Shown one piece after another: positions 8,143 through 10,876 of a DNA stretch of 14,429 nucleotides. The stretch lies in the IMG/VR virus record IMGVR_UViG_2630968766_000006, positions 1-14,429 of that record; one strand, 5' to 3'. Every line of letters starts with the position of its first letter. Position 1 is the first letter of the stretch. Position numbers and translations under genes: made by a program. This stretch comes from a virus. Its lineage: Duplodnaviria > Heunggongvirae > Uroviricota > Caudoviricetes. The notes beneath the pieces were generated by a model. That model saw only the letters and a program-made list of their open reading frames with translations. It did no database searches and was not told where the DNA came from.

Positions 8143-8697
8143 ATGAAAAATACTGATTTTGAAATCCGTACAGCGGAACTCACCGCCAGCAATGAAAAGC
8201 TGGTGGGCTATGTGGTGCGCTGGAACAGCCGATCCGAGCTTATCTGGGGTGAGTTTTACGAGATGTTCGCCCCGTATACGTTTAAAGATAGCCTGGCATC
8301 CGGGCGCGATGTGCGGGCGCTGTATGAGCACGATTATAAAGGGCTGCTGGGCCGCACCACCTCCGGCACACTGCTGTTAAGCGAGGATGACACCGGCTTA
8401 CGCTTCGAACTTGATCCGCCTGACACCCAGACGGGGCGCGACCTGCTGGCACTGGTGAAACGTGGCGATCTTTCCGGCATGTCGTTTGGCTTCCGGGCCA
8501 CAAAGGAAATCTGGGATTTTAACCAGAATCCTTGTAACCGCACGGTAACGGCGGCGGAGCTGCTGGAGATTACCGTAACAGCCACACCGGCTTACAGTGA
8601 AAGTGATGTGGCTATCGCCCTGCGTTCGCTGGAACGGGCGCGGCACCCTGCGCAAAATAGTAATGCCCGTTTCTGGGTCGATCTGGCGGGGTTGTAA
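8143..8697 (+). CDS. HK97-family prohead (capsid maturation) protease
   Basis: 184-aa ORF with GGAG RBS; sequence pattern (FEIRTAE...GYVVRWNS...GMSFGFRA) typical of HK97 prohead proteases; position between capsid and portal. Confidence 0.8.
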   Translation: MKNTDFEIRTAELTASNEKLVGYVVRWNSRSELIWGEFYEMFAPYTFKDSLASGRDVRALYEHDYKGLLGRTTSGTLLLSEDDTGLRFELDPPDTQTGRDLLALVKRGDLSGMSFGFRATKEIWDFNQNPCNRTVTAAELLEITVTATPAYSESDVAIALRSLERARHPAQNSNARFWVDLAGL

Positions 8698-8698
8698 T

Positions 8699-9898
8699 AT
8701 GCGCTGGTGGCCTTTTGGAAAACGGGATGAATCCCGCAGCCTGTCACCCGACGATGTGATCGCGATGATGGGCGGCAGTAACACCGCTTCCGGGGAAGCA
8801 GTGAACGCCAGTACGGCGGAAAGCCTTCCGGCCGTGATGAATGCCGTGGCCGCTATCAGTGAAGCGGTGGCCGCGATGCCCTGCTACCTGTTCAGCATGA
8901 AAGGCACGCTTAAAGACCGCGTAACTGGTTCGGCCGCAGGCCAGCTTATTACGCAGCAGCCGAACGAATGGCAGACGCCTTTCCAGTTCAAGCGCACCAT
9001 GATGCGCCATTGTCTGTTAAGCGGTAACGCTTATGCGGTGATCCAGTGGGAGCGCAGCGGCCAGCCTTCCGCGCTTATTCCTGTTTCTTCCCGTTCGGTC
9101 AGTCTGCGTCGGGTGAATGCCCGTCATCGCTTTGTGTATGACGTGACCTGGCCGGATGGCACGATGAAAACCTATCTTCCCGGCGAAATGTTCCATATGC
9201 GCCATATGTCGGACGATGGCTGGATCGGGCGCTCGCCAGTGACGGTCTGCCGGGATGCTATCGGGCTGGGGCTGGCGCAGCAGCGCCACGGCGGGGCAAT
9301 GATGCAAAATGGGATGATGGCCTCTGGCGTGATCACGTCTCCGGTGTGGTTCGATGAAGCCAAAGGCAAGAAGGCGCTGGAGAATCTGGAGCGTTACAAG
9401 GGGGCGAAGAATGCCGGTAAAACGCCGATCCTTGAAGGCGGCATGAAGTTTGAAAATCTGGGCATGAGTAACCAGGACGCAGAATGGTTATCCAGCCGGA
9501 ATTTTACGATCAGCGATATCGCCCGCATTTTTAATATTTCCCCGATTTTTTTGCAGGACTACAGCCACAGCAACTACAACAACTTTTCTGAGGCGACGCG
9601 CGCCTTTCTAACCCAGACCTTACGCCCGTGGCTAACCAACTTTGAGCAGCAGTTTAAAAAATCGCTGTTCCTGCCTGAGTCGGATTTTATCGAGTTCGAC
9701 ACCTACGATCTGTTACGCGCAAATCCGAAAGAACGTTATGAATCCTACGGCACGGCCATCAAATCAGGCTTTATGAATCCCAACGAAGCCCGCGCCCGCG
9801 AGGGTATGCCGCCGTATGCTGGTGGTGATGAGTTCAGCCAGGCGTGGAAACAGGTCAGCAGTAAGGACAGCAACGTGAGCAAGGAGGATGGCCAGTGA
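8699..9898 (+). CDS. Phage portal protein, HK97 family
   Basis: ATG at 8699 two nt after protease stop (ORF track opens at 8597 inside protease); about 399 aa; motif region (LPAVMNAVAAISEAVAAMP...FNISPIFLQ) consistent with HK97-family portals. Confidence 0.85.
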   Translation: MRWWPFGKRDESRSLSPDDVIAMMGGSNTASGEAVNASTAESLPAVMNAVAAISEAVAAMPCYLFSMKGTLKDRVTGSAAGQLITQQPNEWQTPFQFKRTMMRHCLLSGNAYAVIQWERSGQPSALIPVSSRSVSLRRVNARHRFVYDVTWPDGTMKTYLPGEMFHMRHMSDDGWIGRSPVTVCRDAIGLGLAQQRHGGAMMQNGMMASGVITSPVWFDEAKGKKALENLERYKGAKNAGKTPILEGGMKFENLGMSNQDAEWLSSRNFTISDIARIFNISPIFLQDYSHSNYNNFSEATRAFLTQTLRPWLTNFEQQFKKSLFLPESDFIEFDTYDLLRANPKERYESYGTAIKSGFMNPNEARAREGMPPYAGGDEFSQAWKQVSSKDSNVSKEDGQ

Positions 9899-10230
9899 GA
9901 GGAGGAGGGCTAAGGCAGCGCGTCACGATCCAGAAGGCCACGATCACCCGCTCACCGTCCGGGCAACCGGTAGAAACATGGGGCGATGTGGCGACGATCT
10001 GGGCAGAAGTGAAAGGTATCAGCGGGCGGGAACTGATGGCGAGCGGGGCCGAAATGTCAGAGGTGACTTATCGAATCTGGATGCGCTACCGCCCTGATGT
10101 AACCAGTGTTAACCGCGTGGTGTGGCAGGAAAAAGGCCGTGAGCCGCTGGCGTTCGATATTCAGTCGGCTATTCCCGATGAGAAAGCCACCCGGCTGGAG
10201 CTGCTGTGTAAGGGAGGTAAGAAACTGTGA
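9895..10230 (+). CDS. Head-tail adaptor / head closure protein
   Basis: GTG start overlapping portal stop (GTGA), AAGGAGG RBS at 9881-9887; LRQRVTIQ...TWGDVATIWAEV...SEVTYRIWMRYRP...ELLCK pattern typical of phage head-tail joining proteins. Confidence 0.75.
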   Translation: MRGGGLRQRVTIQKATITRSPSGQPVETWGDVATIWAEVKGISGRELMASGAEMSEVTYRIWMRYRPDVTSVNRVVWQEKGREPLAFDIQSAIPDEKATRLELLCKGGKKL

Positions 10231-10520
10231 GTGAATTAATCACTATGGAAGAGGCAAAGCAGCATTGCCGTATTGATGGCGACGATGATGATTCAATCCT
10301 GCAACTGTACATCGATGCGGCGTTAGAGGTTTGCCAGAAGCATATCGGCAAAAGCTTTGATAACGGCCTGGAGTTTACGCCCGCCATTCATGCCGGTTGC
10401 CTGATGTACGTTGGGCACCTGTACGAGAACCGGGAAGCGACCAGCGCCACGCCCTTAACCGAAGTTCCGCTGGCAATAGACAGCCTGTGGAGCATCTACC
10501 GCGATCCGGGGGTTTACTGA
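10227..10520 (+). CDS. gp6-like head-tail connector protein
   Basis: GTG start overlapping previous stop, GGGAGG RBS at 10212-10217; N-terminal ITMEEAKQHCRIDGDDDDSILQLYIDAA motif characteristic of gp6-like connector proteins. Confidence 0.75.
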   Translation: MSELITMEEAKQHCRIDGDDDDSILQLYIDAALEVCQKHIGKSFDNGLEFTPAIHAGCLMYVGHLYENREATSATPLTEVPLAIDSLWSIYRDPGVY

Positions 10521-10876
10521 TGCCTTACCAGCCTTTACGCCGTTGCACCTTTCCAGGGTGCCGTCACCGTGTGGCATCCGGGCGTTGCGATGAGCACCGG
10601 CAGAAAGACGACCAGCGGGGAACGGCAGCGCAGCGCGGCTATGACCACCGCTGGCGCGTCTATCGTGCGCAGTTCCTGAGTGCTAACCCGTTGTGTGTGA
10701 TTTGCCTGCGTGAGGGGCGATTCACCCCGGCGACCGTGGTCGATCACATTACACCGGTGAACGGCCAGCGCGATCCCCTGTTCTGGAAGACAACCAACCA
10801 TCAGGGGCTATGCAGGGATTGCCATAGCTGGAAAACCAGAGTGATCGATAAACGCGGATATGGTGCGAAATCATGA
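10520..10876 (+). CDS. HNH endonuclease (packaging-associated)
   Basis: ATG at 10520 overlapping connector stop (ORF track opens at 10397); Cys pairs and DH...N...H motif (CVICLREGRFTPATVVDHITPVNGQRDPLFWKTTNHQGLCRDCHSWK). Confidence 0.8.
   Translation: MPYQPLRRCTFPGCRHRVASGRCDEHRQKDDQRGTAAQRGYDHRWRVYRAQFLSANPLCVICLREGRFTPATVVDHITPVNGQRDPLFWKTTNHQGLCRDCHSWKTRVIDKRGYGAKS

Follow-up and report, generated by a model that had tools for sequence, protein, structure and literature searches.

Gene Organization and Start Codons of the Head Gene Block

The window, the whole 14,429-nt stretch of DNA analyzed here (positions 1 to 14,429 of IMG/VR record IMGVR_UViG_2630968766_000006), carries an integrated element with the gene content of a capsid-forming phage-inducible chromosomal island (cf-PICI). 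Among its packaging genes, six open reading frames (ORFs) on the plus strand are separated by gaps of only +1, −4, −4, −1, and −4 nt. The first gene of this tight block (8143..8697) encodes a prohead serine protease of 184 aa (Pfam Peptidase_S78, E 9e-46); a GGAG of its own precedes ATG 8143 by 8 nt, and the exact product is present in public collections. It is followed by genes for a portal protein of 399 aa (8699..9898; Phage_portal, E 5e-93), a head-closure protein or "head-tail adaptor" of 111 aa (9895..10230; Phage_HCP, E 3e-25), a gp6-like head-tail connector of 97 aa (10227..10520; Phage_connect_1, E 2e-12), and an HNH endonuclease of 118 aa (10520..10876; HNH, E 2e-6). The last member, orf49 (10873..11022), encodes 49 aa, and its exact product is found on 47 contigs; a similar 50-aa ORF is annotated after the HNH gene in an E. 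coli homolog of the locus (L001). The original prediction, made from the letters of the sequence, described a chain of overlapping or abutting stop and start codons through the portal, adaptor, connector, and HNH genes. The Pfam matches bear out these gene identities and the four junctions it named are present, but the chain starts earlier, at the protease gene, and continues to orf49.

The four junctions read to the base as predicted. At the first (8695..8701, TAA-t-ATG), the protease TAA (8695-8697) and the portal ATG at 8699 are separated by a single T at 8698. At the second (9895..9898, GTGA), the portal TGA (9896-9898) overlaps the head-closure GTG (9895-9897) by 4 nt, and a Shine-Dalgarno (SD) sequence, AAGGAGG (9881..9887), lies in the final portal codons (K-E-D), 7 nt before the GTG. 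The third (10227..10230) is likewise a 4-nt GTGA, in which the head-closure TGA (10228-10230) overlaps the connector GTG (10227-10229), with the SD sequence GGAGGT (10213..10218) in the final head-closure codons (K-G-G), 8 nt before the start. At the fourth (10518..10522, TGATG), the A that ends the connector TGA (10518-10520) is also the first base of the HNH ATG (10520-10522), a 1-nt overlap. A fifth junction (10873..10876, ATGA) joins the HNH TGA (10874-10876) to the ATG of orf49 at 10873. Two of the four starts first described are thus GTG codons, as had been claimed. The AAGGAGG before the head-closure start is shared by the E. coli homolog and by the Salmonella relatives (94% DNA identity) used for close comparison, and the GGAGG before the connector start is kept in the E. 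coli homolog.

Homologs, close relatives, and sequence records together establish ATG 8699, GTG 9895, GTG 10227, ATG 10520, and ATG 10873 as the true starts. The survey covered 80 loci from Enterobacterales and Pasteurellales with portals 58–61% identical, plus one E. coli island. For the portal, the start codon nearest the N-terminus expected from homology is 0–6 nt off, and for HNH all 77 of 77 loci have the start precisely where homology predicts it. No in-frame start other than GTG 9895 exists in the first 20 codons of the head-closure gene, whose residue 1 aligns to position 1 of the Phage_HCP profile; this GTG is kept in the 94%-identical relatives, and the motif at the homologous position is ATGA in 36 loci and GTGA in three (four counting the window). 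The GTGA of the third junction also occurs in the E. coli homolog and the Salmonella relatives, and TGATG is found at the position homologous to the fourth junction in 39 loci, the window included. Exact 399-, 111-, 97-, 118-, and 49-aa products are on record on 38–47 contigs (NCBI, Logan, and ENA), and full-length cluster members, among the matches listed, are all of identical lengths.

If instead the longest ORFs were translated, the portal would start at GTG 8597 and HNH at TTG 10397, giving out-of-frame overlaps of 101 and 124 nt, respectively, with the upstream genes. The sole attraction of these starts is that both frames are open in the window sequence. In the Salmonella relatives, however, the long HNH frame is broken by a TGA at the position of window 10502-10504. 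Third positions of the long portal frame hold none of nine sites that vary in the Salmonella comparison, against five of nine for the protease frame, and those of the long HNH frame hold one of 15, against nine of 15 for the connector frame. An in-frame start upstream of the tight start is missing altogether in 68 of 79 homologs for the portal and in 59 of 77 for HNH, and neither a 433-aa portal, a 159-aa HNH, nor a 91-aa connector version is found among ∼15 billion proteins. We therefore rejected GTG 8597 and TTG 10397 and regard the longest-ORF reading, which has almost no chance of being correct, as already effectively refuted. ATG 10245, which would yield the 91-aa connector, was rejected as well: the E. 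coli homolog has CTT in its place and Salmonella has GTG, databases lack the product, and the Pfam match already starts before this codon.

The comparison with homologous islands thus agrees with the tight starts, as the original prediction expected. The accompanying concern that automated callers would mis-set them does not hold for the window sequence. Gene calls on record (NCBI, Logan) for the identical E. coli loci and the 94%-identical Salmonella loci use the tight starts, and in RefSeq the Prokaryotic Genome Annotation Pipeline chose them as well for an E. coli island of 72% identity. The only mis-call found is in LR881103.1 ("Escherichia phage vB_KppS-Ant"), and its direction, toward a shorter product, is opposite to the concern. 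There, the portal is annotated from ATG 3043, 54 nt downstream of a conserved TGA-t-ATG junction (2985-2991) that precedes the conserved N-terminus MWNIWPFGRK, so the annotated portal is probably 18 codons too short. This case indicates that coupled starts with weak SD sequences can be missed, toward shorter products.

Tight Spacing Is Conserved and Sharply Bounded

By themselves, the junction motifs are weak evidence, because three of the four bases that can precede a TGA (A, G, or T) create ATG, GTG, or TTG. Among same-strand gene pairs of E. coli, 24% are within −8 to +6 nt of each other (PMC10666635); four such junctions in a row would be expected in ∼0.3% of cases if independent, a null that is over-simple since the genes of an operon are not independent. 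Homologs are more informative. Protease and portal genes are within −8 to +6 nt of each other in 99% of loci (78 of 79; median gap of +1 nt), portal and head-closure genes in 87% (median −4 nt), head-closure and connector genes in 68% (median −8 nt), and connector and HNH genes in 62% (median −1 nt). With the broader limits of −35 to +20 nt, the head-closure and connector genes are close in 71 of 73 homologs, and all four junctions are close in 68 of the 72 loci having all four scored. The flanking spacers are never tight in the same loci: none of the capsid–protease (median +45 nt) or HNH–terS (median +170 nt) distances is within −8 to +6 nt. These counts point to a tight block that is a conserved and sharply bounded feature.

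The overlaps could nonetheless be neutral by-products of start and stop codon turnover, with ATGA, GTGA, and TGATG as the easiest outcomes and no selected role. The −4, −1, and −8 classes dominate across all prokaryotes (PMC10666635), the −4, −8, −1, and −14 classes dominate in the homolog survey, and a simulation study derives the length distributions of overlaps from codon redundancy (PMC3887535). However, turnover leaves unexplained why four or five tight junctions persist in 68 of 72 loci beside long neighboring spacers and why SD sequences are maintained inside the coding C-termini, and we consider it an improbable account of the block.

At its upstream edge, within the 42 nt that separate the capsid gene from the protease gene, the block is preceded by a terminator-like hairpin on the plus strand (8106..8124), GGGGC-TTCG-GCCCC followed by five Ts. 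Of 65 distinct spacers from homologs, 62 contain a comparable GC-rich hairpin with a T-run, in which the loops vary and a few stem positions differ. The hairpin is likely a partial terminator or an RNA-stabilizing element that raises output of capsid above that of the downstream low-copy genes. At the other edge, the orf49–terS spacer (11023-11151, 129 nt) starts with GGGGCTGGGGGGAGGG, which includes a G-rich run at 11025-11040, and in the E. coli homolog the corresponding ORF is likewise followed by a similar GGGGTGGGGGAGG. This spacer, long in all homologs as judged from the enclosing HNH–terS distance, may hold the cos or packaging site.

Probable Translational Coupling

Geometry, conservation, and published reporter experiments together make coupling by termination-reinitiation (TeRe) a reasonable, if unproven, inference. 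In reporter tests, 13 of 14 native overlapping pairs, five of them from E. coli, were strictly coupled by this process (PMC6728339). Coupling depends steeply on distance and is gone by a spacing of ∼20–38 nt, and the contribution of SD sequences differs gene by gene (PMC6728339, PMC10666635). All gaps in the chain fall in the −8 to +10 nt class treated as predictive of coupling in PMC10666635. Both GTG starts are preceded by strong SD sequences that lie in the last codons of the upstream genes. The portal and HNH ATG starts have only a weak, G-rich SD with at best a 3-nt match, and no SD match is found at the portal start in 35 of 79 homologs.

An alternative form of coupling, in which a hairpin masks the downstream ribosome-binding site until the upstream gene is translated, is unsupported. 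In 120-nt windows around the junctions, folding is not stronger than in dinucleotide shuffles (z from −0.2 to +0.7) and no significant local structure is seen, which leaves reinitiation, rather than unmasking of a sequestered site, as the mode by which coupling would operate. A consensus scan found no promoter-like sites within 8143-11022, with no more hits than in shuffles. A weak terminator-like match is inside the portal gene (8992-9007), and the total number of such matches is not above the shuffled expectation. At the gathering threshold, an Rfam search of the window yields neither RNA genes nor regulatory RNAs.

We think it probable that the low-copy part of the packaging operon consists of six packed ORFs that use the tight starts and along which ribosomes would be handed over by termination-reinitiation. 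Ribosomes would load at the ribosome-binding site of the protease gene, downstream of the conserved hairpin that follows the gene for the abundant capsid, and pass from ORF to ORF until orf49. At the two GTG starts, reinitiation would be aided by the strong SD sequences in the final codons of each upstream gene, and the portal and HNH starts, with weak SD sequences, would depend largely on reinitiation itself. The predicted outcome is linked output of proteins that assemble at a single portal vertex, in a small genome that stays compact.

The tight packing could also reflect compaction without coupling. A satellite has to be kept short for its small capsid, and every ORF could be initiated at its own ribosome-binding site. 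The AAGGAGG and GGAGGT sequences before the GTG starts and the unstructured junction RNAs are compatible with this explanation, as is the drift of overlap lengths among homologs, whose gaps range from −31 to +16 nt. Moreover, the terS and terL genes are separated by +11 nt in the window, a spacing at which initiation in E. coli is believed to be independent (PMC10666635). Compaction, however, fits less well with the portal and HNH starts, whose SD matches are 3 nt or less and, at the portal, often missing. The 42-nt and 129-nt spacers that flank the block are conserved as long, so minimization is not general, and nearly all overlapping pairs examined experimentally are coupled (PMC6728339). 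We regard compaction without coupling as unlikely.

Several observations nevertheless weigh against termination-reinitiation along the whole block. Exact geometry is unconserved: the pattern of +1, −4, −4, and −1 in the window is common to only four loci, and in 28 of 77 homologs the gap between the connector and HNH genes is +8 to +16 nt. Homologs maintain closeness rather than overlap. The coupling itself is deduced from geometry only. Since their strong SD sequences are in unstructured RNA, the head-closure and connector starts could initiate de novo. The stoichiometry rationale does not cover HNH, which is an enzyme, or orf49. Finally, the copy of the island in the window has an amber stop in its capsid gene and may be nonfunctional.

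The Element Is Predicted to Be a cf-PICI

The full 14,429 nt of the window match two E. coli contigs at 100% (GCA_013057945.1 and GCA_053349195.1), which were retrieved via an exact-protein look-up. In both, the element is between gcd (upstream) and hpt (downstream). A search of complete RefSeq E. coli genomes for near-identical DNA returned only islands of 72–75% identity. Pfam identifies a tyrosine integrase (1-1221; Phage_integrase with Arm-DNA-binding domain), a Phage_AlpA regulator (2175-2459), and a D5-type primase-helicase (4260-6080; D5_N, DUF5906, and Pox_D5). A Phage_capsid gene is 5' of the tight block, and Terminase_4 and TerL genes are 3' of it. The window also encodes a DUF4222 protein, and host hpt is at its right end. 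A minus-strand ORF of 435 aa (7024-8331) opposite the capsid gene is an example of the antisense ORFs across the region; the coding content is accounted for by Pfam matches on the plus strand.

Candidate attL and attR sites are formed by a 31-nt direct repeat that is 87% identical and has a perfect 20-nt core, TATCAATCGGTGTATCAAC. In one of the identical contigs (L082), the copies are at 1253-1283 and 15100-15130 (window 13798-13828), 13,847 bp apart and flanking the genes from int to terL. The left copy is directly 5' of int, just outside the window, and the right copy is directly 5' of hpt. Published operational criteria for cf-PICIs (10.1101/2025.02.11.637232) describe islands of ∼10–18 kb with att repeats; integrase, regulation, and replication modules; packaging genes; and neither lysis genes nor a complete tail module. 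The element is ∼13.9 kb with candidate att repeats, and Pfam matches identify all three modules and all eight packaging genes in the published order, with the capsid gene interrupted by a TAG in the window copy. No tail or lysis Pfam matches are found among the remaining ORFs of the 13.9-kb element. By these criteria, and judging from its predicted gene content, the element qualifies as a cf-PICI, a class that is also marked by helper-phage induction, small capsids of its own, and the use of hijacked tails for transfer.

The capsid gene (6934-8100) is split by the in-frame TAG at 7741-7743 into pieces of 269 and 109 aa. The TAG is also present in the two identical E. coli contigs (L082 and L084). 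In a third (L083), otherwise 98.9% identical, the position is TCG (Ser) and the capsid of 388 aa is intact; the TAG is therefore a C-to-A nonsense polymorphism. The intact TCG allele is that of GCA_012995625.1. Among 24 contigs, ∼17 are estimated to have the TAG and ∼7 to be intact, with three loci checked in sequence; the former estimate sums counts of 14 and 1 at two TAG-carrying places with two sequence-checked loci. Without suppression of the amber codon, the window copy probably cannot build capsids.

Comparison with Known Systems

The junctions resemble the TeRe pairs described in E. coli and archaea (Huber et al. 2019, PMC6728339; 2023, PMC10666635), which have the same ATGA/GTGA and TGATG motifs between same-strand genes and likewise have SD sequences within the upstream coding region. 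TeRe pairs are enriched for subunits of one complex, and here the portal, adaptor, and connector are all at the portal vertex. The block differs in having five consecutive junctions, one of which (+1) does not overlap, and its coupling is a prediction.

In gene content, the element resembles the cf-PICIs EcCIEDL933, EcCIGN02175, and KpCIDSM30104 (10.1101/2025.02.11.637232), which likewise have integrase, alpA, and primase genes with a packaging module and are without tail and lysis genes. As in that study, the adaptor is the most divergent gene. The text of the study has no occurrence of "overlap" or "translational" and leaves gene overlaps and translational coupling unmentioned. Relative to the representatives, the portal in the window is only ∼60% identical to the best found, the element is integrated beside hpt, and its capsid gene has an amber codon. 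True phages in the collection reach at most ∼30–33% portal identity. The ∼60% portal matches are mostly small records of 15.3 and 16.5 kb and a 3.8-kb fragment, plus one 106.5-kb Klebsiella phage record. The 16.5-kb LR881103.1 and the 15.3-kb Pasteurella phage Pmp8 are apparently satellites deposited as phages, because their gene layout is the same as that of cf-PICIs.

HK97-type head gene clusters have the same protein families (portal, S78 protease, HK97-fold capsid, gp6-like connector, head-closure protein, HNH, and terminase), and their late genes are typically closely packed. Gene order differs. The order is portal–protease–capsid in HK97 and capsid–protease–portal in the window, and the gp6-like gene precedes the head-closure gene in HK97 and SPP1, whereas the head-closure gene is first in the window (9895-10520). 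In the cf-PICI literature, "adaptor" stands for the first of these two genes and "connector" for the second; the structural nomenclature of SPP1 gp15/gp16 has them the other way round. Overall, the arrangement matches both the textbook −4 and −1 overlap classes and the packaging module already known from cf-PICIs. This layout is standard for the morphogenesis operons of tailed phages and does not depart from known kinds.

Adaptor Cassettes and Implications

In some pairs of related islands (L019/L028, L028/L053, L025/L014, L014/L034, L034/L032, L025/L032, and L051/L079), the 3' end of the portal gene is 93–99% identical and the connector gene 75–98%, with only 58–62% identity in the adaptor gene. 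Relative to the adaptor start, the drop in identity is at −16 to +29 nt, and high identity returns +16 to +37 nt inside the connector gene. In related loci where only the adaptor gene is exchanged, its identity is 58–59% between portal and connector flanks of 96–99%. The pattern is that of single-gene adaptor cassette swaps with breakpoints at the overlapped junctions, and it fits the cassette exchange reported in 10.1101/2025.02.11.637232. Tentatively, two ideas could be linked, although we would not count on both: protease through orf49 would form one reinitiation unit whose input is set by the hairpin, and the overlapped junctions flanking the adaptor gene would be the crossovers for swaps of tail specificity. 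The parts of a junction that may serve in such crossovers are the SD sequence, the ATGA or GTGA, the first few codons, and the conserved N-terminus of the connector.

The chain of junctions is a genuine feature, ordinary and already known, and the exact gene models are in public databases. It has little import beyond correct annotation because short stop/start overlaps are the commonest same-strand spacing of prokaryotes and are routine in phage head operons. Nevertheless, the analysis firmly settles where the adaptor and connector genes start, and the right starts are needed for cloning or swapping these genes because both proteins determine which phage tails cf-PICIs can hijack. In the surveyed loci, the low-copy head genes form a conserved, sharply bounded block that is a candidate for a single translational unit.

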